Below, piece by piece: positions 2,347 through 34,337 of a stretch of DNA of 43,254 bases. Where the stretch lies: contig MHOA01000010.1 in the NCBI GenBank assembly GCA_001821765.1, positions 1-43,254 on the forward strand, written 5' to 3'. This stretch comes from Candidatus Ryanbacteria bacterium RIFCSPLOWO2_12_FULL_44_26. Lineage in GTDB: Bacteria; Patescibacteriota; Minisyncoccia; Ryanbacterales; HO2-45-13. The translations under genes were made by a program, and so were the position numbers. A model generated the notes under the pieces. The model was not told the origin of the DNA. It searched no databases and saw nothing but the letters and a program-made list of their open reading frames with translations. Numbering within the stretch: the first letter of the stretch is position 1; each line of letters starts with the position of its first letter.

Positions 2347-2520
2347 CAATCTGCTGAAAAACTTCCGACTTTCGTCGGGAGTTTTTCATTTGCAGATTGG
2401 AGTGTGCTGGGAGAGAAGCGAGCAGTGCACCCAAGTTTCAGAATATTTTGAGAAATAGTAACTCTCTTTTTGGTGGAGACCTTATTACTTTTGCTACTCG
2501 AGTTGTGTTATAATGTGCGA

Positions 2521-3180
2521 ATGGAAGTATCGTCTATAAACTCAAAGTTTATATTTAAAGTGCTATCTATTGGGGCCATGCTTTTTATAAGCTATGCGGC
2601 CAGTCTTTTTGTTCAGTCTGTGGTAAATGACCGAATTTTATATCAAACAGAAGCATTAAAAACACAATTGGGAGACGCCTCAAAGGTTCTTATACATGGA
2701 AAACTTCCCGGGTTTGATGAAGAGAGAATCAGTATATACCGCCTCGTAGACAGAGTACTAAAATATGCAATTTTATTTATTTCACTCACGTTCATTGCCT
2801 TTTTTCTTACAGAGGTTATCTATCAGTTAAAACTTCATCCAATACAATACTTGCTTGTAGGACTGGGGCTTGCCGAGTTTTACCTCTTACTTCTTGCGTT
2901 TATGGAACATATCGGATTTCTGCGGGCGTATATTATTGCGGCAGTTATGATTATTTTACTCATCTCGCTTTATAGTAGTTTTATTTTAAAGAGCAAAAAG
3001 GGTGGTGCTTTGATAGCGATTTTGCTTACGGTTATTTACTCTTATCTTCTTGCCGTGCTTTATCTTGAGACTTATGCACTTTTGTCCGGCGCGCTTCTCC
3101 TTTTTGTTGTTCTTTCTGGGGTCATGTTTATTACCAGAAACCTCAATTGGTATGATGCTTTTAGTTATGTTAAAAAATAA
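2521..3180 (+). CDS. creD: CreD-family inner membrane protein, short form
   Basis: IYRLVDRVLKYAILFI...LHPIQYLLVGLGL..FYLLLLAFMEHIGF..AY...ALLSGALLLFVVL..VMFITRNLNWY match the CreD C-terminal membrane domain. Confidence 0.8.
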   Translation: MEVSSINSKFIFKVLSIGAMLFISYAASLFVQSVVNDRILYQTEALKTQLGDASKVLIHGKLPGFDEERISIYRLVDRVLKYAILFISLTFIAFFLTEVIYQLKLHPIQYLLVGLGLAEFYLLLLAFMEHIGFLRAYIIAAVMIILLISLYSSFILKSKKGGALIAILLTVIYSYLLAVLYLETYALLSGALLLFVVLSGVMFITRNLNWYDAFSYVKK

Positions 3181-4253: not shown

Positions 4254-4379
4254 CTTCACTGTGTTCAGGACGGGCATAATCCGCTAGCCCTCACAAGTTT
4301 ATACTGAACACCCGACTGCGCTCGGTATAAACTTCGTTGAAGCGCTTAAGACAGGCTGCCTCGACACGCTCAATACAAG
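4254..4379. repeat. Cluster of degenerate REP-like short repeats (approx. CTTCGAC-n-CGCTCAG(G/T)A(C/T)A(A/G))
   Basis: Copies near 4254, 4312, 4332 and 4359; hairpin AAGTTTATACTGA/TCGGTATAAACTT at 4295-4334; related copy at 40012. Confidence 0.55.
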
Positions 4380-4422
4380 TAATGGAATCGGACTTTTGTA
4401 CTTGCGTGAAATTAATCCATTG

Positions 4423-4439
4423 TATATACTGTGTATATA
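4423..4439. promoter_or_regulatory. Putative TA operator palindrome
   Basis: TATATAC-TGT-GTATATA immediately before the antitoxin ATG, as expected for RHH antitoxin autoregulation. Confidence 0.5.
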
Positions 4440-4711
4440 TGAAGACCATGTTAAATATTAAAACCGATAGAAAGCTCAAAGAAGAGGCCCAGAAAACAGC
4501 CAAGGCTTTGGGTTTGCCGTTGAGCCTCGTTATCAATCAGTACCTGAAAGAATTTATTCACGAACGGAGAGTGGAGTTTTCCGAGCCTTTAGCGCCAAAT
4601 GTGAAGACACAAAAACTCTTGGAAAAGATTAAGAAAGATATTCAAAAAAGAAAGAACCTTTCTCCTGTATTTTCCTCCGCTGATGAAGCAATAAAGCACT
4701 TGAACTCCTAA
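4439..4711 (+). CDS. RelB/DinJ-family antitoxin
   Basis: MLNIKTDRKLKEEAQKTAKALGLPLSLVINQYLKEFI RHH signature; overlaps the toxin start (TAATG). Confidence 0.88.
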   Translation: MKTMLNIKTDRKLKEEAQKTAKALGLPLSLVINQYLKEFIHERRVEFSEPLAPNVKTQKLLEKIKKDIQKRKNLSPVFSSADEAIKHLNS

Positions 4712-4968
4712 TGCGAATCATCTTCCACGCAAGTTTTAAGAAGAAGTATAAGAAACTACCAAGTGCAATTCGGAAAAAATACGACGAGAAACTTCATGTT
4801 TTTATAAAAAATCCACTTGATCCCGTATTAAACAACCACGCTCTTCATGGAAAATGGAAAGAATATCGCAGTATTAATGTGACAGGCGATTTTCGTGCCG
4901 TATTTGAGATTCTTGAGAACATTGTTTATTTTGTAGATATCAATACGCACAGCAATTTATATAAGTAG
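4711..4968 (+). CDS. RelE/YafQ-family mRNA interferase toxin
   Basis: F+KKYKKL, LNNHALHGKWKEYRSINVTGDFRAVF, C-terminal INTHSNLY. Confidence 0.9.
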   Translation: MRIIFHASFKKKYKKLPSAIRKKYDEKLHVFIKNPLDPVLNNHALHGKWKEYRSINVTGDFRAVFEILENIVYFVDINTHSNLYK

Positions 4969-5333: not shown

Positions 5334-5513
5334 ATGGCGTTTCAACAAGACGACAGCGGCTTTCGAAGACAGATGTTTCAGGGAGATTGGAAATGTTCAA
5401 AGTGCGGAGCGGATATAAAGGAGCTTCCTTTTAATCCTGATCCGGCTCGCATAGACCAGCTCCAGTGCAGAGATTGTCATCGAAAAAACCGCCCGCCTCA
5501 AAGAAGGTGGTAG
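5334..5513 (+). CDS. Small zinc-ribbon protein, CxxC-x17-CxxC-like (59 aa)
   Basis: MAFQQDDSGFRRQMFQGDWKCSKCGADIKELPFNPDPARIDQLQCRDCHRKNRPPQRRW; TATAAT upstream and terminator downstream; below the ORF-track cut-off. Confidence 0.85.
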   Translation: MAFQQDDSGFRRQMFQGDWKCSKCGADIKELPFNPDPARIDQLQCRDCHRKNRPPQRRW

Positions 5514-5517
5514 GATA

Positions 5518-5553
5518 AAAAACAGCCCCGCAGTGATGCGGGGCTGTTTTTTT
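5518..5553. terminator. Bidirectional intrinsic terminator
   Basis: AAAAACAGCCCCGCA/TGCGGGGCTGTTTTT. Confidence 0.8.
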
Positions 5554-5650
5554 AAGATCGTCAGGCGAGTTTTTCTCCATGCCCGACAAAACAGCTTGTT
5601 TTTTAATATACGAAAGCCAACATTGTCCAGTTCTTACTAACTGCCGGTTA

Positions 5651-5687
5651 ACACAGAAAGACCTTTCCAGTAAAGGTCTTTCTGTGT
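5651..5687. repeat. Perfect 16-bp inverted repeat upstream of the GH6 promoter
   Basis: ACACAGAAAGACCTTT-CCAGT-AAAGGTCTTTCTGTGT. Confidence 0.7.
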
Positions 5688-5703
5688 CTGAAGCATTTGA
5701 ACC

Positions 5704-5748
5704 TGTAACTTTTTTATGACGATGTTACATCTTACAGTTAAGAGCAAT
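5704..5748 (+). promoter_or_regulatory. Putative ECF-sigma promoter of the GH6 gene (TGTAAC-N17-ACATC)
   Basis: 33/45 ungapped identity to the sequence upstream of the ECF sigma gene (10871-10915, minus strand). Confidence 0.7.
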
Positions 5749-5823
5749 GCGTAACTTATACGCGTTGCCGGAGAAAAAGCCTTGGGTTTGCACATTAAAA
5801 GCTTTAAACGGGGACAAGACATT

Positions 5824-7053
5824 ATGAACAGGTTCTTTGTGAGATTAGCCATTATTCCTTTTTTGGGAATAATTACTGTATTTTTGGGGAATACGTCAGC
5901 CGCTGCAGAAATTCCCAAGGTGGATTGCAGTAAAATAAAAACCCTGTCGCCTTTTTACCATAACAACTCCATGCAGGCGGTGCGTGTTGAGCAGGAACTT
6001 CGCCAAAAAGGCGACATTGAAAGCGCGGATACGCTAGAGTATATATCATGCGTTCCTCAAGGAACGTGGTTTGTTGGCGGAGATAAAAGCGCCGTGAAAT
6101 CTCGGGCATCGGGAATTGTTCGGGATGCGGCGGCGGAGGGAAAAATTCCGGTGTTGGTGCTTTATAATGCTCCTGCCGGAAATCGCAACGCATGGTTAAG
6201 CGGTGTTGGAGACGCCGGTGCATATAAAGAATGGGTAAGGGCGATTGCAGAAGGAGTCGGTTCGAACGAGGCGTGGGTCATGCTTGAGCCGGATGCGATT
6301 GCGCTTGCCGGAAATCTTAGCGGTCAAGATCAGAATGAGAGATTTGGACAAATCAGCGATGCCATATCTATTCTTAAAACATATGCCCCCCATGTTCGCG
6401 TGTATATTGACGGGGGACATAGCTCATGGAAAAGTGAACAGGCGCAAGCTGATTTTCTCCTTCGCGCGGGAATTGAAAAGGCTGATGGGTTTTTTACCAA
6501 CGTGTCTCATTTTCGCAGCACTGCTGATGAAATTACCTATGGGAAATCGGTTTCCGGGCTTGTTGGAGGAAAACACTTTGTCATTGATACCAGCAGAAAC
6601 GGAAAGGGGTCGTTGAACTATGAATGGTGTAATCCGTCCGGAAGAGCAATTGGAGTGCGGCCGACGTTGAATACCGGCGATCCGTTTGTTGATGCATATT
6701 TATGGATCAAACTGCCCGGAGAATCTGACGGCACCTGCAATGGCGGCCCGTCTGCCGGTAAGTTTTGGCTTGAATATGCGCTCGGTCTTGTACATGAGGC
6801 GCTGACACTGTCGTTATTTGAGGAACCGCTCACCATGGGAACGGAAAGCTCTCAAGCCGCTCCAGAAACGGTTCAAGAGGACAACACGGCACCAACCCCG
6901 ATCACAGAATCAACCCCAATTCGAGAACAGTCCTTTGGTACAAATGAAAGCGAAACTCATTCGCTCTATAAAAATGAATCCTTCTTTAAGAGGAGAACAT
7001 CCTATATTTCCGTAACGGAGCAATTGAGGTCGAGGTTTAGGAGCGGCACTTAA
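5824..7053 (+). CDS. Secreted glycoside hydrolase family 6 (cellulase-like) protein
   Basis: Signal peptide; PVLVLYN, LEPDAI, VYIDGGHSSW, GFFTNVSHF, FVIDTSRNG, WCNP, DAYLWIKLPGESDGTC motifs; Thr/Glu/Pro-rich tail. Confidence 0.9.
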   Translation: MNRFFVRLAIIPFLGIITVFLGNTSAAAEIPKVDCSKIKTLSPFYHNNSMQAVRVEQELRQKGDIESADTLEYISCVPQGTWFVGGDKSAVKSRASGIVRDAAAEGKIPVLVLYNAPAGNRNAWLSGVGDAGAYKEWVRAIAEGVGSNEAWVMLEPDAIALAGNLSGQDQNERFGQISDAISILKTYAPHVRVYIDGGHSSWKSEQAQADFLLRAGIEKADGFFTNVSHFRSTADEITYGKSVSGLVGGKHFVIDTSRNGKGSLNYEWCNPSGRAIGVRPTLNTGDPFVDAYLWIKLPGESDGTCNGGPSAGKFWLEYALGLVHEALTLSLFEEPLTMGTESSQAAPETVQEDNTAPTPITESTPIREQSFGTNESETHSLYKNESFFKRRTSYISVTEQLRSRFRSGT

Positions 7054-7112
7054 GCCATTTACATTTTCTCTGCGCTCAATGGTTTTCGGGCCTTGTTATG
7101 CACCTTGCGCGC

Positions 7113-7142
7113 TTGACAAGCCGGGACGAAAAACTCTACCCT
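7113..7142 (+). promoter_or_regulatory. Promoter of the 6S-like RNA
   Basis: TTGACA-18 bp-TACCCT just upstream of the RNA stem. Confidence 0.55.
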
Positions 7143-7146
7143 AAAA

Positions 7147-7277
7147 GTAGGCAGCGTTCCGATAGGCATTCCGATTAATATTTCATACTACTGCGTCCGA
7201 ATCGCTTCGGCCTGCGGGCTGTAAGCTGAGGACCAAACAATGGAGTTTTGCGGACATACCTTAAGAGCGCTGCCTAC
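7147..7277 (+). ncRNA. ssrS: Compact 6S-like RNA
   Basis: Closing stem GTAGGCAGCGTTC/GAGCGCTGCCTAC, central bubble containing ATATTTCATAC (as in E. coli 6S), apical stem; own promoter and terminator; no ORF. Confidence 0.6.
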
Positions 7278-7283
7278 CCGTTG

Positions 7284-7316
7284 AAACAAAAATCCCCCGA
7301 GGGGGATTTTTGTTTT
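7284..7316. terminator. Intrinsic terminator of the ncRNA
   Basis: AAACAAAAATCCCCC/GGGGGATTTTTGTTT. Confidence 0.8.
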
Positions 7317-7382
7317 CTTATTTATAAGGGGACGGATAGTCTGTATTTCGCACTTTGAGAAAAATTGTTATAATCTTTAGGC

Positions 7383-7979
7383 ATGAAAAAAGAAAATATC
7401 AATAACATTGTCGATTTTCTTTTTGAGGTCGGGATGCTCGCGAAGACCCCGAGAAGCGGGTTTTTCTTTTTGGGAAGCGGCGAGCAAAGTGTTGCCGAGC
7501 ATGTAAACAGAACAGCGTACATCGGTTTTGTGCTGGCTTCCATCGCGAACGATATTGATGCTTCAAAAGTGCTTAAAATGTGTATTTTTCATGACCTCGC
7601 CGAGGCGCGGGTATCTGATTTAAATTATGTGCACCAAAAGTACACCGAAAGAAAAGAACACCAAGCCATAGAAGATTTAGCCAAGGCGCTGCCGTTTGGC
7701 GATGCCATTCGCAGCATTATCGGTGAATATGAACAAAGAGAAAGCAAAGAGGCAAAACTTGCTAAAGACGCGGACACCTTGGAATTTCTTTTGTCGCTTA
7801 AGGAGCAGGTTGATATCGGGAATGAACGGGCGAAAACATGGACACCGCCTTTGCTTAAACGGCTGTTGACCGATGAAGCAAAGGAACTTGCTAAAGTGAT
7901 TGTGGAAACGGACTCCGACCGATGGTGGTATGGCAATAAAAATGATGATTGGTGGGTGAGCCGGGGAAAAGAACGCTAG
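7383..7979 (+). CDS. HD-domain phosphohydrolase (YfbR/HDDC2-like 5'-deoxynucleotidase)
   Basis: PRSG, QSVAEH, IFHDLAEAR.SD, AKDADTLE motifs. Confidence 0.88.
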   Translation: MKKENINNIVDFLFEVGMLAKTPRSGFFFLGSGEQSVAEHVNRTAYIGFVLASIANDIDASKVLKMCIFHDLAEARVSDLNYVHQKYTERKEHQAIEDLAKALPFGDAIRSIIGEYEQRESKEAKLAKDADTLEFLLSLKEQVDIGNERAKTWTPPLLKRLLTDEAKELAKVIVETDSDRWWYGNKNDDWWVSRGKER

Positions 7980-8116
7980 CGTTCTTTTTGCGTGAAAGTT
8001 TTCTAGCGGCGGCAGCCCGTCCGATTTCTCGGCTGGAATATAGAAGTGATATACTACTATATAAATAATGTACTTTTCACATGAACTTCTGAACTTCAGA
8101 AAGGAGGCGATGGAGA

Positions 8117-8749
8117 GTGCGACTAAAGAGAACGCGAGAGATTCTTTTTAGAGAATTAAGTAATCGCGAGATCAGAATATTCCTTATTTTTATTGCGCGG
8201 GACTGCGGATTGCTATCTGTTCTTGAAAAATCCGTGCAGCAAAGAAAAGATCAGCGCGCTTTCCCTGCAATAAACGCGCATCGGCTTCTTTGCTGCATGT
8301 CCAGATTGTTGACCGGCATTCCCGTTCGTGAGGTCAGCGTTAAAGAGCGCAAGATGCTTGTTGCTTCCGTTGGATTCTTGAAAAGACGGTTAGAACGGTA
8401 TTATCGCGGACGCATTTGGTCAGGCGTGCAGGATATTCATATCCTTCACCCTGTCTATGGAAAGATGTACGCGACACCCCACGCGATTGATCGCTTTTTC
8501 GAATGCGTTTCCCTCGAACTCTTGGTTGCATTGGCGCGTGACAGGAACGTATCAAGAAATATCATAAGCTGTTTCTGTGAATCTTTGAAGCGTTCGCGGC
8601 AAAAGGCCTTTATGGAGGGACGCAGGGCCGAATGTTCCATCGGCAGCGCCCGTGATGCTGTAAAGCATCTTCACGACGTATGGCTTGATGTGTGGTTCGC
8701 CGTCACGGAAAAAGGAGAAACGGTTGTTGCCGTCGAGCGGCCGTACTAA
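8117..8749 (+). CDS. Hypothetical protein
   Basis: 210-aa frame with SD AAAGGAGG and a downstream hairpin; contains TPHAIDRF. Confidence 0.55.
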   Translation: MRLKRTREILFRELSNREIRIFLIFIARDCGLLSVLEKSVQQRKDQRAFPAINAHRLLCCMSRLLTGIPVREVSVKERKMLVASVGFLKRRLERYYRGRIWSGVQDIHILHPVYGKMYATPHAIDRFFECVSLELLVALARDRNVSRNIISCFCESLKRSRQKAFMEGRRAECSIGSARDAVKHLHDVWLDVWFAVTEKGETVVAVERPY

Positions 8750-8793
8750 GTGATACGGCCGCTTTTTATATGCCAGAAAAGCTCTCTTATAGT

Positions 8794-10329
8794 TTATTGT
8801 GTCGTAAATGACTGCTCGGTTGACGTTGCGGTATTCCCGGCAGCGTCTTTAGAGATAGCGATGTAGTAATATGTTGTGCTTGCAGTGAGGTTTGGGAAAT
8901 TGAGCAGATGGGAAGTAAGCAGGTTGATGTGTTCGTTGGCAAACAGCGTATTTGGCGCGGTGACGGGCGTTGACGTGCCCATAAGAACGTTTCCGGTTGC
9001 CTCTTCGTCGGTTAGCCAGCTAACGGCCGTTGAGCTCGCGGTGATATTGGATGCGGTGAGATTGCTTATGGCGGGAGCTGTGGTATCCGGCGTAGTTGTT
9101 GCGGTGCCGTTGTCATGATCACCGTCTTCATCCTCTTCGCAGCGGCCTATCGTGTCGCCGTGCCGAAGGTGTTTTGGCAGATCTCTTCGTTTGATTATTA
9201 TGGTTTCGCGCCCGTCTTCATCCTCGTGTTCGTCATTTTCACTTTCGTCTTCATCTCTGTCGTCATCATCCCCATCATTTATATGGCAGATAGTAATTTT
9301 GCCTCTCTCGTCTCTATCGTCTCTTCTGTCTTTTCCTTTGTTTTCGTTGTCGTTTGCAGCTTCGTCTTCGTCATCTTCATCTTCATTCTTGTTTTCTTTC
9401 TGTTTTTCCACGTCATTTTTGTGTTTGATTTTAAGGTCTAGCTTTATATCGCCATCCTTCATCTTTAACATTTCCAGATTTTTATTGTTCTTATATTTAA
9501 GATCTGTCTTTGCGTCGTCATCATCTTGATCTTCGTCTTGCCCTTGAAACTGAAACATTACTTCCAGTTTTTCGGCTGATGTCTCTACCTTGATTTTTAA
9601 CTTTTCATCGCTTGATGTGATTTTTACCGTTTTAAGGGTGAACAGATGTTTTTCAACAATAGAGCGCAACTCTTCTATAATTTCGTCTATAACGGCAGCT
9701 GCGAGCGCGTTGCCCCTGTTCAGTAAATCTGTTTTGTTGCGTTCTAAGTGTTCAAGCGCCGTTGTAAGCGCAAGCTCGGCGCGGTCAACATTTCCTTTTA
9801 TCTTCGGCGGTTTTTCGCCGTCGGTATGCGGCGTGGTAGTTGCGGTTGTGGTTGCGGTAGCATCCTCCAGCGGGGTTGATGTGGCAGTTGCGGTAAGATG
9901 ATCAAAATCATCACCTGCTGCGGTTTCGGTTAAAACAGCGGCCACAATAATTTTCGCCTCATCAAGCCGCTCTTTTGAAAACCGAATAATAAGCTCATCT
10001 TTTTTCTTATTCGATGCAAGCGCGAGCCGCACCCGTTCTGCCGCTATATCAATAGAGAAAAGCAAATCTCCGGGCTTTGCGTTATCGGCAAACGCAACGG
10101 TTGTTCCCGAAGAGATAAGAAATAATATAAGCGCAATCGCCGTTGCAGCAAATTTTATTCGCCGTTTCGCAAACAGCAACGGTTCAAATAAGAAATGATG
10201 CCAGCGTGCAGTTTGTTTTTCGTGGCGTGAAAGGCGTGTTTCAATATGCGACCAAAGCACCTGTTGCTCGACCGGTGATAGCGGTTTTGGTTTAGCCTTT
10301 TTTAGCAACTGTTCAATGTTTTGGCGCAT
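8794..10329 (-). CDS. Putative membrane-bound anti-sigma factor: TM, DUF5667-like domain, acidic linker, TICH..HGD..G.C metal-binding-like motif, C-terminal FN3-like domain
   Basis: Overlaps the ECF sigma stop; short cytoplasmic N-terminus; TM; AKPGDLLFSIDIAAERVRLAL (DUF5667-like); DTTAPAISNL..VSWLTDE...LTASTTYYY..SKDAAGN..TSTEQSFTT (FN3-like). Confidence 0.75.
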   Translation of the reverse strand: MRQNIEQLLKKAKPKPLSPVEQQVLWSHIETRLSRHEKQTARWHHFLFEPLLFAKRRIKFAATAIALILFLISSGTTVAFADNAKPGDLLFSIDIAAERVRLALASNKKKDELIIRFSKERLDEAKIIVAAVLTETAAGDDFDHLTATATSTPLEDATATTTATTTPHTDGEKPPKIKGNVDRAELALTTALEHLERNKTDLLNRGNALAAAVIDEIIEELRSIVEKHLFTLKTVKITSSDEKLKIKVETSAEKLEVMFQFQGQDEDQDDDDAKTDLKYKNNKNLEMLKMKDGDIKLDLKIKHKNDVEKQKENKNEDEDDEDEAANDNENKGKDRRDDRDERGKITICHINDGDDDDRDEDESENDEHEDEDGRETIIIKRRDLPKHLRHGDTIGRCEEDEDGDHDNGTATTTPDTTAPAISNLTASNITASSTAVSWLTDEEATGNVLMGTSTPVTAPNTLFANEHINLLTSHLLNFPNLTASTTYYYIAISKDAAGNTATSTEQSFTTQ

Positions 10330-10867
10330 ATCGTTCGTTATCCTCGTTGGCTATCTGTTGTAATTTCGAAAGCGCGCGGTGGTGGCGTACCTTCGCAGTA
10401 TTCTCACTTATTCCCATAACAGCGGCGATACCAGCGAACGAGAGGTCACTCCAGTAGCGCAGACGCAGCAACTCTCGATCCTGCTCCCCGAGATGTCCAA
10501 GCAGCCCCTCAATATATTGATAATCGGGATATAAGATGTCATAGGAATCTTTTATATGCTGTTCGTTGAACTCTACAACATCCGCTCTTTTTTTAAAATG
10601 TCGTGACAGTTTTCGTTTGAGGATTATATATACAAATCCGAGGAACTCCTCATCGCTTGAATACTCAAAACCGTCAAATGAGATCCATAAATCTATAAAA
10701 GTTTCTTGGAGGATGTCCAGCGCATCTTCGCGCTGTCGGGTGCGTGAGAGCGCGTACGCGAACAACCTGTCTTGTAACAGCGTTACAATTTCGTGAAAAG
10801 CCTCCGTTTCCCCATGTAGAGCCTTTTTGATCAATGGCTGCAGGTTATGCTGCGTACGCGTACTCAC
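10313..10867 (-). CDS. ECF-type RNA polymerase sigma factor
   Basis: AFHEIV..LQDRLFAYA...DALDILQETFIDLW (sigma2); LLRLRYWSDLSFAGIAAVMGISENTAKVRHHRALSKL (sigma4). Confidence 0.92.
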   Translation of the reverse strand: MSTRTQHNLQPLIKKALHGETEAFHEIVTLLQDRLFAYALSRTRQREDALDILQETFIDLWISFDGFEYSSDEEFLGFVYIILKRKLSRHFKKRADVVEFNEQHIKDSYDILYPDYQYIEGLLGHLGEQDRELLRLRYWSDLSFAGIAAVMGISENTAKVRHHRALSKLQQIANEDNERYAPKH

Positions 10868-10870
10868 TGT

Positions 10871-10915
10871 AATGCTCTTTACCGTAAAATGTCATCTTAC
10901 CGTAAAAAGGTTACA
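10871..10915 (-). promoter_or_regulatory. Putative autoregulatory ECF promoter (TGTAAC-N17-ACATT)
   Basis: AAC-type -35 directly upstream of the ECF start; near-copy at 5704. Confidence 0.7.
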
Positions 10916-11063
10916 TTTTGGAAGGAAGTTCGGCGTTTATAGAAACCGCGAAAAGTCTTCGTGCGGATCGCCGCAACATATTAACTTTTCCGATCAAGTA
11001 AGTTAACATTCTTACTGGCTGCTTCATTGAAAATTTTCATGTTTTTTGGGAGGAAGGGCGCCT

Positions 11064-11563
11064 ATGCCGAATGATGAGGAACAAGTCAGTCAAGAATTAC
11101 GCAGTTCCCTTGAAAAAGAATACGATGTAGTTGGAGCTGACTGGAGATTTCTGATAGGTACCAGATTCGCTATGCTGGCTTTTTCTATCACCTTAATTTC
11201 ATTTCTGCTCGGTGTGTATCGTTACATGATTACTGCCTTTACGGATGTTGACTTGTCTGGATTATCAGCCGATCAAGTGTTAGACCTGATCAAACTGCGA
11301 AACGAAGCTTTGAGAGTAATCCCGGTCATCGGCGCTGTAACAGCGGGGTTGCTTTTGCTTGTTGAGTGGAGAACAAGAAATTTGTATCACCAAGGATGCG
11401 CGCAGAGAGCTGAAAAAATTGAGGAAATGTTAGGAATTGAAAATGGCCATTTCAGGAAGTTCGCCGATTCCTCGATTCCTTTCGGTTTTGGCACCCACCC
11501 TTTGCAATTGTAAGCGTTTACGTGCTCATGATATTCATTTGGCCTATATTTATGGTCGAGTGA
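11064..11563 (+). pseudogene. 3-TM membrane protein (paralog of 16762-17283) with a frameshift before TM3
   Basis: Frame stops at 11513. The shifted frame continues FAIVSVYVLMIFIWPIFMVE* to 11563, matching the paralog's last helix. Confidence 0.6.
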
Positions 11564-14587: not shown

Positions 14588-14909
14588 ACCCACCTCCAAT
14601 CCGAAATCATTATTTTCAATGAACCAAAACCAAAGTAGCAGATGCGATGCTATTTTGTCAAGAAAAAGCCCATCGCGCCTTCGAAGCCCCGCCTTTTTTG
14701 TAATTGAGAAGACATATTAATTATCATTTTAGGCTCTGAGATTCAACTTAATATTCTCTCCCACATTGTTACCATAAATGATATTTATTACGTAATAACC
14801 TAAATATAGGAAAATTTGTAATAAGACACGACAGATAAAAGAAGCCGTATAAACAGATCAGGCATCAGTGAGTTGATAGCCGCTACAAAATCGGATATTA
14901 TAAAGTGGC

Positions 14910-16367
14910 ATGAAAAAAGTGTTCATTATTGTCGCCGTTATTGTTGTGCTCGGTGTTGTGGGTTATGTTATGAGCCGATCCGGAGGGCCGGCTGATGAAG
15001 CCGCGCCGCAACATTTGCTGGGCGATGCGGTAACGATTTATGTGTACACTATAAATGGCGTAGCAACCGGCGGCGGCACGCTTTCAGTTCCGTTTATTGC
15101 TAACACAGACAAAGAGTGGTTTGTTAATGTGCTTGCCGATTTTAATAATGATGGAACATTCAATACTGACGAATGGGTTGCAAGAAATCAAGTCGCCCGG
15201 GTTTTTGAAAACTATAACAACAATTTTGTGCTTGACCTTTCGGATATTGCCCTAACAGAGGGGCAGCAAGTAAACACGCGCATGGTGTTAACCAATAACC
15301 GGCTTGAACAAACGTGGGACGGCGTTGCCCCGAAAAACAGCGCAGCACGAGACTCGCAGGCACTTGTTCAGACATATGAAATGGCGGATATCATCGGCAT
15401 TAATGTTCCCGGCGCTTCGGAAGATTTGAAGCGCGGGCCCCTTGCGGCGTTCTTTGCACCCATTCCACAAACTGCCTACGCGCAGGACAGCAATATAAAT
15501 ACATTCCGCCAACCGCCGATGCCCGACATCAGACAGGATGGAATGGAATGCACTCCGACCGCAACTGCCAATAACCTTATTTCCCTTGCGCAAGAGAAAG
15601 GGCGCCGAAACGATTTACCTCAAAACCCGCAGGACATTATCAATGAGCTTAAAAGGGACATGCAGTTTCATAACGGCGTGCTCTTAAGGAACATTATTTC
15701 AGGAAAGGAAGCGTTTGCACAAAGACACAATCTGCCGATTCTTACCGAACGGATTGACAATCCAACCGCTCAAGATATTGCCTCTGCTATTAACAGAGGG
15801 TGTGTGGTGGAGTTGAGTATGGCTTGGGTAAGGTCGCGCAGCGGCCACCCGAATACCGGTCACGTGGTGAGCGTTGCGGGCGTAAGCACCGCAAACGGCG
15901 TGAATCAAATTCAGGTCCACGATCCCGCAACTCCGAGCGGGGTTGATACATATGATCTGTCGTTTGAAGTGCAGGCAGGAGAGAGAAAATTTGAGGGCGT
16001 AAACTATCCCATGTGGGATGGGGTGGCGTTTATAGATGCGATTTTTGTGCAGTGTTGGACGGGCGTTGAGCATGCTACAACCGGAACCACACCGGATACC
16101 AGCCGCGTTGAGGCGCTTGTTATAAACGGCGGTTATTATCCCAAAAGCCAGTTTCACGCGGCGAGTCCCGACAGGTGCAATGCTTCCCACTGGCATGCCG
16201 GCGGTACGGTCTACGGACTTAAAACCAAAACATCAACGGATATTGTAAACGCCACTGATCCAAATCCGACCTCGTGCGGATTTGGAAAAATTGGCGAGGT
16301 GCCGGAGGAATTTATTGACATCACTTTTGAACAGTCAACGGAACTTATAAAAAACATTCCGTTATAG
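14910..16367 (+). CDS. Membrane-anchored/secreted protein with a GEVED-like segment and a C39/papain-like cysteine protease domain
   Basis: N-terminal TM; VLADFNNDGTFNTDEW; Q...CTPTATAN, GHVVSVAG, IQVHDP (Cys-His-Asp). Confidence 0.7.
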   Translation: MKKVFIIVAVIVVLGVVGYVMSRSGGPADEAAPQHLLGDAVTIYVYTINGVATGGGTLSVPFIANTDKEWFVNVLADFNNDGTFNTDEWVARNQVARVFENYNNNFVLDLSDIALTEGQQVNTRMVLTNNRLEQTWDGVAPKNSAARDSQALVQTYEMADIIGINVPGASEDLKRGPLAAFFAPIPQTAYAQDSNINTFRQPPMPDIRQDGMECTPTATANNLISLAQEKGRRNDLPQNPQDIINELKRDMQFHNGVLLRNIISGKEAFAQRHNLPILTERIDNPTAQDIASAINRGCVVELSMAWVRSRSGHPNTGHVVSVAGVSTANGVNQIQVHDPATPSGVDTYDLSFEVQAGERKFEGVNYPMWDGVAFIDAIFVQCWTGVEHATTGTTPDTSRVEALVINGGYYPKSQFHAASPDRCNASHWHAGGTVYGLKTKTSTDIVNATDPNPTSCGFGKIGEVPEEFIDITFEQSTELIKNIPL

Positions 16368-29087: not shown

Positions 29088-29181
29088 TACAAGAAGTATA
29101 CTTAGGAAACGAGTGAACGTCAATTGCCGATGAGTTTTTGTCGTTTAAGGACAGATTTGATACAATGTGATGTATTGTTTT

Positions 29182-29850
29182 ATGGAAATAGCAACGTTTA
29201 TATTTCTCATCGCAATTCTCATCATGTCTGTTGTGGTGCATGAAGTTTCTCATGGTTTCATTGCGCTTGCGCTCGGAGATTTTACTGCAAAGTATGCGGG
29301 GAGATTAACGCTTAATCCGTTAAAACATCTTGATCCGGTTGGTTCGTTTCTCTTCCCGGCATTGTTGGTGATGCTCGGGGTGCCGCCTTTTGGCTGGGCT
29401 CGTCCCGTTCCTTACAACCCTTATAATTTAAGGGATCAAAAATGGGGTCCGGCATTGGTTGCTGTAGCCGGTCCGCTGTCAAACATCCTCGTCGCTTTTG
29501 TTTTCGGTATGATGTTTAGGTTTGCGGCAATCAGCGAGGTTGCAGCGTCTACAGCATTTCTGACCTTATTGGTTGTTGTTATTTATATTAATATTTTACT
29601 GGCGGTGTTTAATCTCATACCGATTCCCCCACTTGATGGATCAAAGATTCTTTTTGCAGTATTACCCCATCGTTATCTTGCAATTCAAAGATTATTGGAG
29701 GCCTATGGATTTTTTATACTTTTAATTCTTATATTTATTGGCCGGGGCATTTTAGGACTCGTTATTCTCCCTCCAACATTTCTTCTCGCACAGTTACTAA
29801 CCGGATTGTCTCCCCAGGAGTTGCTGGGCGCCTTGGCGGCGTTTTTCTAA
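29182..29850 (+). CDS. Site-2 protease (M50 family)
   Basis: HEVSH, GRLTLNPLKHLD, AGPLSN, FNLIPIPPLDG. Confidence 0.93.
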   Translation: MEIATFIFLIAILIMSVVVHEVSHGFIALALGDFTAKYAGRLTLNPLKHLDPVGSFLFPALLVMLGVPPFGWARPVPYNPYNLRDQKWGPALVAVAGPLSNILVAFVFGMMFRFAAISEVAASTAFLTLLVVVIYINILLAVFNLIPIPPLDGSKILFAVLPHRYLAIQRLLEAYGFFILLILIFIGRGILGLVILPPTFLLAQLLTGLSPQELLGALAAFF

Positions 29851-33679: not shown

Positions 33680-33761
33680 ATGGTTAGTGTAAGTAACATA
33701 GCCCCTGTTTTCAAACAGCAGTTATTGCAAGGTCGAGGGAAAAAGCGTATAATCTTTACAC

Positions 33762-34337
33762 ATGGAGGAAAAAGAGGCTGCGGGCACTGAAAAGGAAGAG
33801 AAAGCAAACAGCTGGCTGAGGGAATTGTGGGGCTTTGTTAAGATTATTATTGTCTCTCTTGTTATTGTGCTTCCAATCCGGGCGTATATTGTGCAGCCAT
33901 TTATTGTTCGTGGGGACTCAATGAAGCCCACCTACTATCAAGGCGAATACCTTGTGATAGATGAGTTTTCATATCATATCCGTGGACCGCGGCGGGGAGA
34001 AATTGTCGTGTTTCGCTACCCTCAAAACCCTTCTCAGTATTTTATTAAGCGCATTGTTGGTCTTCCCCGGGAGCGCGTGGAGGTAAGAAACGGCGAGGTA
34101 TATATAGTAAATGAGGAATATCCGGACGGTATAGTGCTTGATGAGCCGTATCTGCAGGAAGGGGTGTTTTCCAGTCCGGACACAATACTCATGCTGGATG
34201 AAAAGGAATATTTTGTCATGGGTGATAACCGCTATCAAAGTTCAGATTCACGGTTTTGGGGCGCGCTGGACAGCCGTTTTATTGTTGGAAGGGCGTGGCT
34301 TAGGCTTTGGCCGATAGCCCGCGCATCGGTATTATGA
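33762..34337 (+). CDS. lepB: Signal peptidase I
   Basis: GDSMKPT, FIKRIVGLP, GDNR..SSDSRFWG. Confidence 0.95.
   Translation: MEEKEAAGTEKEEKANSWLRELWGFVKIIIVSLVIVLPIRAYIVQPFIVRGDSMKPTYYQGEYLVIDEFSYHIRGPRRGEIVVFRYPQNPSQYFIKRIVGLPRERVEVRNGEVYIVNEEYPDGIVLDEPYLQEGVFSSPDTILMLDEKEYFVMGDNRYQSSDSRFWGALDSRFIVGRAWLRLWPIARASVL

Follow-up and report, generated by a model that had tools for sequence, protein, structure and literature searches.

In the genome of Candidatus Ryanbacteria bacterium RIFCSPLOWO2_12_FULL_44_26, which belongs to the Candidate Phyla Radiation (CPR, Patescibacteria), a block of 45 nucleotides (nt) occurs in two copies on one contig. One copy is upstream of a gene for a glycoside hydrolase family 6 (GH6) protein, the other is 5 kb away and in opposite orientation, upstream of a gene pair coding for an extracytoplasmic function (ECF) sigma factor and a predicted anti-sigma factor. 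The contig (C10, GenBank MHOA01000010.1, 43,254 nt) was analysed at full length and is called the window below; the genome (G000) comprises 890,527 bases in 14 contigs. The block is a real, sharply bounded two-copy element. The interpretation that we favour, and hold to be somewhat on the probable side, is that the two blocks make up a two-promoter regulon of the ECF sigma encoded in the window.

Two copies of a 45-nt block

The two copies and their parts, with promoter elements as proposed here, are the following:

5704..5748 (+): GH6-proximal copy, 76-120 nt upstream of the GH6 ATG
5704-5709 (+): proposed -35 element, TGTAAC
5710-5715 (+): T-run
5717-5726 (+): variable spacer
5727-5732 (+): proposed -10 element, ACATCT, followed by the conserved downstream block to 5748
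10871..10915 (-): ECF-proximal copy
10915-10910 (-): proposed -35 element, TGTAAC
10892-10887 (-): proposed -10 element, ACATTT

An earlier annotation made from the letters of the window only (the sequence-only reading) had aligned 5704-5748 (+) with 10915-10871 (-) without gaps at 33 identical positions out of 45, and both the location and the identity proved correct. The pair is the longest inverted repeat between 5400 and 11300 (repeat I1: 43 nt, 74%). The motif TGTAAC-N15-19-ACATY was found twice in the window, compared to an expected number of 0.13, and two or more occurrences were obtained in one of 100 shuffled sequences. In a comparison of the 45-mers with the whole genome (both strands, every position, ~1.78 million positions), the best non-self match of each copy was its partner with 33/45, followed by unrelated matches of 27/45 at five positions for the GH6 copy and at two positions for the ECF copy. 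No third copy of the 33 shared positions was detected in the genome, where the runner-up place had 22/33. The genome scan for further sites that had been suggested, carried out with a spacer of N15-19, returned the two blocks and three loose TGTAAC-N15-19-ACATY matches, all three inside long open frames. Both block copies are intergenic, and each points into a gene.

The identity is distributed unevenly. Mismatches are at block positions 7, 14, 16, 17, 18, 20, 21, 23, 28, 33, 36 and 44, a map that bears out the earlier description of conserved TGTAAC, ACATYTTAC and AAGAGCA around a variable spacer. Conservation is bipartite: TGTAACYTTTTTA is identical at 12/13 positions and ACATYTTACRGTWAAGAGCAWT at 18/22, with 3/10 in the 10 nt between them. 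Of the 12 mismatches, positions 14-23 account for seven (hypergeometric P 0.0014, for an interval picked after looking at the map). Outside the block similarity drops to the level of shuffled sequence, with a downstream score of 16 (reached by 511 of 2000 shuffles) and an upstream score of 15 (1178 of 2000). Because the flanks are no more alike than shuffled sequence, the block is not part of a segmental duplication that includes its flanks.

The ECF copy is a quasi-palindrome that matches its own reverse complement at 30/45 positions and has a hairpin z-score of -3.98. The GH6 copy has no stable fold (z = 0.30), and its dyad centre differs from that of the ECF copy. Since a fold is confined to the ECF copy and the two dyads are centred differently, symmetry is, as judged from the two sequences, not the feature that the blocks conserve. 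No Rfam family matched near its gathering score at either block. A conserved RNA structure or known RNA family was rejected on these two grounds, the Rfam result and the folding of the ECF copy only, and an operator made of a shared dyad or direct repeat was demoted to a lesser alternative because the two copies are not symmetric in the same way.

Groundwater and soil metagenome runs carry DNA identical to 5400-11200. Of the runs listed, 13 contain at least half of the sampled words of the stretch, and no RNA run was among those listed. Contigs from four DNA runs had no differences at either block and hence are uninformative on variation; the sole differences between run contigs and this interval, at 7424-7466, come from HD-domain genes of other organisms. 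The sequence around 5-11 kb did not stand out as a compositional island.

Promoter-like features of the blocks

In both blocks TGTAAC followed by a 17-nt spacer places ACATYT at the -10 position. Of the genome's four sigma-70-family genes, two are ECF. The second ECF gene (C1:227479-227979) has upstream of it TGTAACC, then TTT and, after a 17-nt spacer, CGTTAT; this TGTAAC-N17-CGTTAT motif is at C1:228125-228099 (-), ~90 nt before the start codon. The same extended -35 element and spacing combined with a different -10 element is, on sequence grounds, what would be expected of two ECF sigmas that avoid cross-talk. A further match, GTAAC-N16-CGTTAT at C4:17625 (-), lies inside a long open frame.

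The -35 element and the T-run have parallels among characterized ECF promoters. According to the available excerpts of PMC12153292, TGTAAC is the -35 element of Bacillus subtilis SigX, and a T-run within the 17-bp spacer contributes to the activity of the Acinetobacter baumannii SigAb promoter. ECF16 promoters are given in excerpts of two other papers (PMC8315932, PMC3420878) as (T/C)GTAAC-N17-CGAA, with starts mapped in Brucella and Bradyrhizobium.

We infer from this arrangement that the sigma of the window reads both sites, and where the transcripts would start. Each block would be a cognate promoter of this sigma followed by a conserved start-of-transcript segment: a -35 element TGTAAC(Y) with a T-run, a 17-nt spacer the last 10 nt of which are free to vary, a -10 element ACAT(Y)T and a start ~7 nt further on. 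Such starts would lie at about 5739-5741 for GH6 and at about 10880-10878 for the sigma operon. The sigma mRNA would thus have a leader of 12-14 nt, in which AAGAG precedes the GTG start codon at 10867 by 7 nt. Both mRNAs would then begin with the common sequence TTACRGTWAAGAGCA, which would include AAGAG, the ribosome-binding-like element of the sigma gene. The ECF copy would drive the sigma/anti-sigma operon, amounting to positive autoregulation, and the GH6 copy would drive the separately terminated gene of a secreted GH6 glucanase-like protein.

The sigma factor and its predicted anti-sigma factor

The operon consists of two genes on the minus strand:

10313..10867 (-): ECF (group 4) sigma gene, 184 aa, GTG start, with Sigma70_r2 and Sigma70_r4_2 domains; region 3 not found
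8794..10329 (-): predicted anti-sigma gene, 511 aa, sharing 17 nt with the end of the sigma gene

The product of the first gene is indeed an ECF sigma, as had been proposed: it has regions 2 and 4 and scores 77.3 bits with TIGR02937 (cut-off 42.9). Among the 79 NCBIfam families that it matched, none of the ECF subfamily models was above its cut-off; the top 25 matches listed were all to ECF-type models. Concerning the longer members of the sigma-70 family in this genome, 396-1709 (+) codes for a 437-aa protein with a weak HhH match at its N-terminus, and a second long sigma is on C8:12758-12976, with region 2 scores of 41 bits for the former and 83 bits for the latter. The genome may thus have two long sigma-70-type factors.

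The partner protein is laid out as follows (residues):

1-56: cytoplasmic part
57-82: membrane helix
85-135: DUF5667-like domain
236-402: acidic low-complexity stretch (167 residues, 35% Asp/Glu)
403-511: FN3 domain

The sequence-only reading had called it a DUF5667/FN3 anti-sigma factor. The single membrane helix and the FN3 fold (a model with pLDDT 90, and Foldseek) agree with this description, but both Pfam matches were below their cut-offs (DUF5667 25.5 bits vs 27; Pur_ac_phosph_N 25.7 vs 30), and no Pfam anti-sigma domain was detected in residues 1-56. Prediction of the complex of the sigma with residues 1-58 yielded a score of 0.75, compared to 0.01 for the best of three controls; 51 of 78 solved complexes attain the mark used for this score, as against 2 of 108 mismatched pairs. 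Contacts were predicted with both region 2 and region 4 of the sigma. At least 72% of the contacts were common to the runs, and the partner was modelled with a pLDDT of at least 65. Contact between the two proteins is thus predicted by modelling, and the score may reflect likeness to sigma/anti-sigma complexes already solved. In the resting state the membrane anti-sigma would hold the sigma through its first ~40 residues, and an extracytoplasmic event acting on the DUF5667-like/acidic/FN3 ectodomain would free it, turning on both transcription units.

The relatives compared were 60 genomes, and the collections genome_contigs (genomes of 185,579 species) and metagenome_contigs were also searched. 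Residues 34-135 of the anti-sigma had weak matches just downstream of ECF homologues in three of the relatives (G043, G060 and G007; E 1.5e-7, 3.9e-4 and 4.4e-4), which suggests, at the level of sequence similarity, that the ECF/anti-sigma pairing may recur in CPR genomes. The FN3 type of this protein recurs in many large open frames and large surface proteins of CPR relatives. In the Foldseek search with the FN3 model, the sensor domain of RsgI4 (7cg8) was at rank 3 (E 1.1e-3, TM 0.55) amid dozens of generic FN3 matches. The ectodomain is made up of a generic FN3 domain and an acidic disordered stretch and has no known carbohydrate-binding module. The acidic stretch is coded at 9199-9401 (-) by degenerate short tandem repeats, rich in GTC/TTC/ATC on the plus strand (D1, D3, D5), and low-complexity contigs of other organisms pile up on this interval.

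The GH6 gene and its transcription unit

The features of this unit are:

5517-5552 and 5651-5687: two perfect 16-bp hairpins (repeats I7 and I8), dividing the GH6 unit from upstream genes
5747..5827 (+): putative upstream reading frame of 26 codons, the ATG 2 nt after AAGAGCA, the TGA overlapping the GH6 ATG (ATGA)
5824..7053 (+): GH6 family protein, 409 aa, PF01341
7283..7316 (+): terminator-like hairpin and T-run after GH6, before an HD-domain gene

The assignment to GH6, already made in the earlier annotation, is secure: PF01341 scores 170.5 bits (cut-off 27, E 1e-49), and the closest solved relatives are Mycobacterium tuberculosis Cel6/CelA1 (1up0, E 4.9e-61) and Thermobifida fusca endoglucanase E2 (1tml, 2.7e-59). 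Residues 1-28 form a signal-peptide-like hydrophobic segment by hydropathy. In an alignment with five other CPR GH6 proteins (L002-L006), the protein of the window was the only one with a short signal peptide, where the others have a membrane anchor and a Pro-rich linker, and the only one with a C-terminal tail of ~85 aa. The motifs EPD, DTSRNG and GESDG are present. The RDC motif of the M. tuberculosis enzyme has its Asp opposite Asn120 of this protein, and in the CPR alignment the other five proteins have Thr in the column of Asn120. The catalytic roles in GH6 enzymes belong to conserved acidic residues of the active site. GH6 genes were found in 5 of the 61 genomes searched, the present one included.

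From the upstream hairpins to the start codon of GH6, a simple sigma-70 scan found no sigma-70-type site. The HD-domain gene downstream of the terminator-like hairpin has a sigma-70-type promoter of its own at 7347-7374 (10/12, extended -10). The fold of the GH6 leader was no better than that of shuffled sequences (z = -0.42). The 26-codon frame was also considered as a relic of a duplicated 5' end of the sigma gene, from the similarity of KALNGD to KALHGE, and this was rejected, the DNA similarity being not above that of shuffles.

Weighing the promoter interpretation

The shared ECF-type promoter claimed by the sequence-only reading is upheld in part. Its -35 element, T-run, variable spacer, orientation and uniqueness, and the lack of a sigma-70 site at GH6, agree with such a promoter; the -10 element, which is not CGT-like, and the excessive length of the block do not.

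A number of observations weigh against the promoter interpretation. The hexamer at the -10 position is ACATTT or ACATCT and not of the CGT type, whereas the second ECF gene has CGTTAT. For the same reason the SigX/ECF16-type promoters, TGTAAC-N16/17-CGWC or CGAA, fit in -35 element and spacer and do not fit in the ACAT at the -10 position. Among relatives, 5 of 18 ECF homologues carry GT[AC]AC-N15-17-CGTTAT 29-32 nt before the start, compared to 16 of 2000 control windows, for a pattern set after looking at the sequences, with three of the five carriers from one genus and with the 11 of 30 loci that had no tblastn match left out. Past the proposed -10 element 14 of 16 positions are conserved, which is more than a promoter alone needs, and at GH6 this conserved segment runs into the 26-codon frame. 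Other registers can be read at the ECF copy, namely RTKACA-N15-CAWTRC and a weak sigma-70-type site ATGACA-18-TACAGT (9/12); these were ranked lower because their starts would fall inside the annotated sigma frame and the conserved part would become spacer.

The comparative searches likewise gave no help to the promoter interpretation, there being only two sites in one genome. The best matches of the sigma were 29-31% identical in the 60 relatives, 24-34% in genome_contigs and 25-34% in metagenome_contigs (best 80 loci in each collection); no orthologue above ~34% identity was found in these searches. Even genomes of the same family stand far off, with 37-38% identity for the sigma-70-like protein of 396-1709, and the HD gene was not found in them. 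The pattern TGTAACNTTTTTA-N9-13-ACATNTTAC had 15 matches in genome_contigs, none from CPR by the record titles, and these were judged to be chance matches. The second GH6 gene of the genome (on C7) is without the block motif. A GH6 gene and an ECF/DUF5667-type pair occur together in one distant relative, G043, whose GH6 gene lacks the box that is repeated upstream of the ECF gene; identical wiring in this genome was rejected since the repeated box occurs only upstream of the ECF gene. The box, TGTTACACCT, is present twice in tandem, 21 nt apart, ~100-150 nt upstream of the ECF gene at L033 (G043:C31), and nowhere else in G043.

The conservation running 16 nt past the proposed -10 element is what one would look for if the block, or its 3' two-thirds (ACATYTTACRGTWAAGAGCA), were the operator of another DNA-binding regulator or a 5'-leader RNA element shared by the two units. 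The ECF copy is also suited to such a role, being located in a ~200-nt divergent intergenic region, containing TTTACGGTAA twice, 18 nt apart, and having the quasi-palindromic, hairpin-forming character described above. The GH6 copy does not share these properties: with its different dyad centre, its lack of a stable fold and a weak internal repeat (best 11/26, offset 19), the palindrome is not what is conserved. No transcription-factor gene adjoins either site save the RelB/RelE-type pair at 4337-4968, and no Rfam family matched. We therefore regard an operator or leader element as unlikely. Smaller still is the probability that we give to the two blocks being promoters of another sigma, either the second ECF (C1:227479-227979) or a housekeeping-type factor. 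The extended -35 element, TGTAACC, is identical to the second ECF's own upstream motif, and the 9/12 sigma-70-type site overlaps the ECF copy; yet the -10 element differs from CGTTAT at positions that are normally decisive, the GH6 copy has no sigma-70-type site, and, going by precedent, an ECF-type promoter immediately before an ECF gene normally serves the sigma which that gene encodes.

Local duplication, which the sequence-only reading had itself raised as an objection, is not a full explanation, the similarity being confined to the 45-nt block. That the blocks are remains of an old duplication and today regulate nothing at one site, or at either, would be in line with there being two copies only, 5 kb apart in one genome, with no conservation evidence from other lineages, and with the presence of a start codon within a few nt after each block (the short frame at 5747 and the sigma GTG at 10867). 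It agrees poorly with flanks devoid of residual similarity and with mismatches that are clustered rather than spread. Moreover, both copies have kept their orientation and intergenic place in a genome with little non-coding DNA, and GH6 is otherwise without a recognisable promoter. We consider such a relic improbable and retain the two-promoter regulon of the window's ECF sigma as the preferred interpretation.

Possible signal and release protease

The signal perceived by the anti-sigma can only be a matter of speculation. Sensing of a host surface or a glycan by the ectodomain, as first suggested, is a speculative possibility. A study of B. subtilis RsgI (PMC9732909) reports that its disordered region senses gaps in the cell wall, and because of this precedent a signal from the cell's own envelope appears, by analogy, as plausible as one from a host. 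As to the release of the sigma, the sequence-only reading had pointed to a site-2 protease in the window. An M50 protease is present there (29167-29850), but it is small, matches only the last third of the profile (positions 152-221) and is a weak candidate. A full-length M50 protease is encoded on C1; it is RseP-like, with PDZ matches just under the Pfam cut-offs, and judged by its sequence we speculate that it would be the more natural site-2 protease.

These elements can be combined into a contact-sensing switch for attack or feeding of an episymbiotic CPR cell. In such a switch the ectodomain would sense the envelope of a host or a glycan akin to cellulose, the RseP-like protease of C1 would free the sigma, the secreted GH6 protein, cutting this glycan, would be the sole effector, and the non-CGT -10 element would insulate the circuit from the second ECF sigma, with which it shares the -35 element. 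The whole scheme is a long shot; if true, it would be the first case of a circuit defined from signal to effector in a CPR bacterium.

Other features of the window

At 4337-4968 (+) there is a RelB-like antitoxin gene (Pfam matches below threshold) and a RelE/YafQ-family toxin gene, overlapping by 1 nt; the toxin scores 49.7 bits with TIGR02385 (cut-off 27.9). The 236-aa frame at 2470-3180 (+) matches the 428-position CreD profile (E 1.6e-52) over positions 287-428 only, and from this match it may be a truncated or split gene for a CreD-like membrane protein.

TATAAT-like hexamers close to an ATG were seen at 7347-7385, 33730-33764, 14880-14912 and other places in the window. In the cases of the HD gene, a signal peptidase gene, a gene for a 485-aa protein of unknown function and a Na/Ca exchanger gene, the hexamer ends 5-9 nt before the ATG, without a ribosome-binding site. 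ECF genes of relatives have CGTTAT 5-8 nt before the ATG. The close TATAAT-like hexamers suggest, as far as the sequence can indicate, that leaderless mRNAs are frequent in this Candidatus Ryanbacteria genome.

Significance and comparison with known systems

How CPR bacteria regulate their genes has hardly been worked out. Literature searches, which did not extend to supplementary files, found no papers on DUF5667, none on ECF regulons or anti-sigma factors in CPR/Patescibacteria, and nothing relevant on GH6 in Patescibacteria. As a type of circuit, an ECF sigma that controls its own gene and a small regulon with a glycoside hydrolase in it is textbook material; the points of interest in this case are the organism, the minimal size of the predicted regulon, and a non-CGT -10 element combined with a -35 element shared by the other ECF sigma of the genome. 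If our interpretation is true, a sigma whose output is itself and one secreted glucanase-like enzyme would constitute a very simple circuit, since the genome has only four sigma-70-family genes. Such a circuit could be tested directly and without cultivation, because ECF sigma/promoter pairs usually function in Escherichia coli.

The closest parallels in promoter architecture are found in the SigX and ECF16 modules. B. subtilis SigX, Brucella BcrS-AbcS and Bradyrhizobium EcfF-OsrA are described in the excerpts available (PMC12153292, PMC8315932, PMC3420878) as having, like the pair predicted here, a two-domain sigma and a co-transcribed membrane partner. The -35 element TGTAAC followed by C or T and a spacer of 16-17 nt are also in common, and so would be, if our prediction is right, the use of one promoter type for both the sigma operon and a target unit and the very small size of the regulon. 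They differ in the -10 element, which in these excerpts is CGWC or CGAA, compared to ACATYT here, and in an anti-sigma ectodomain that is unrelated; furthermore, the case presented here is from a CPR bacterium and known from sequence alone. SigAb of A. baumannii, as portrayed in parts of PMC12153292, is likewise of the ECF type. Its direct regulon is very small, and its promoter has a 17-bp spacer in which a T-run right after the -35 element matters for function; its elements are GTCAAC and CGTT, and they are backed by mutagenesis and ChIP-seq.

With respect to a polysaccharide-sensing anti-sigma, the SigI/RsgI systems of Clostridium thermocellum had been brought forward as a precedent. Excerpts of four papers (PMC10328401, PMC12203970, PMC4711584, PMC6582324) describe membrane anti-sigmas with an extracellular sensor that control glycoside hydrolase genes and are released with the involvement of intramembrane cleavage by RseP. 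Points of likeness are the genome's RseP-like protease and, among the Foldseek matches of the FN3 domain, the one to the RsgI4 sensor (7cg8). The link holds as an analogy and not as membership in the family: the sigma is ECF and not SigI, the ectodomain has a plain FN3 and not a CBM3, PA14 or GH sensor, and Pfam detected no RsgI N-terminal or autoproteolytic domain in the anti-sigma.

A parallel in biological setting is Tannerella forsythia, in which SigG/FecR controls the beta-glucanase GlcA in response to Fusobacterium nucleatum, as stated in the available part of PMC13352502, which cites Honma et al. 2022. The enzyme in that system, as described there, is a GH16 protein within a SusC/SusD locus and the anti-sigma is of the FecR type, whereas here the GH6 gene stands alone, 5 kb off and on the opposite strand, no transporter genes are present and the regulation is predicted. 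Common to both is an ECF pair encoded near the gene of a secreted glucan hydrolase, in an organism that lives, or in the CPR case would live, in contact with partner bacteria.

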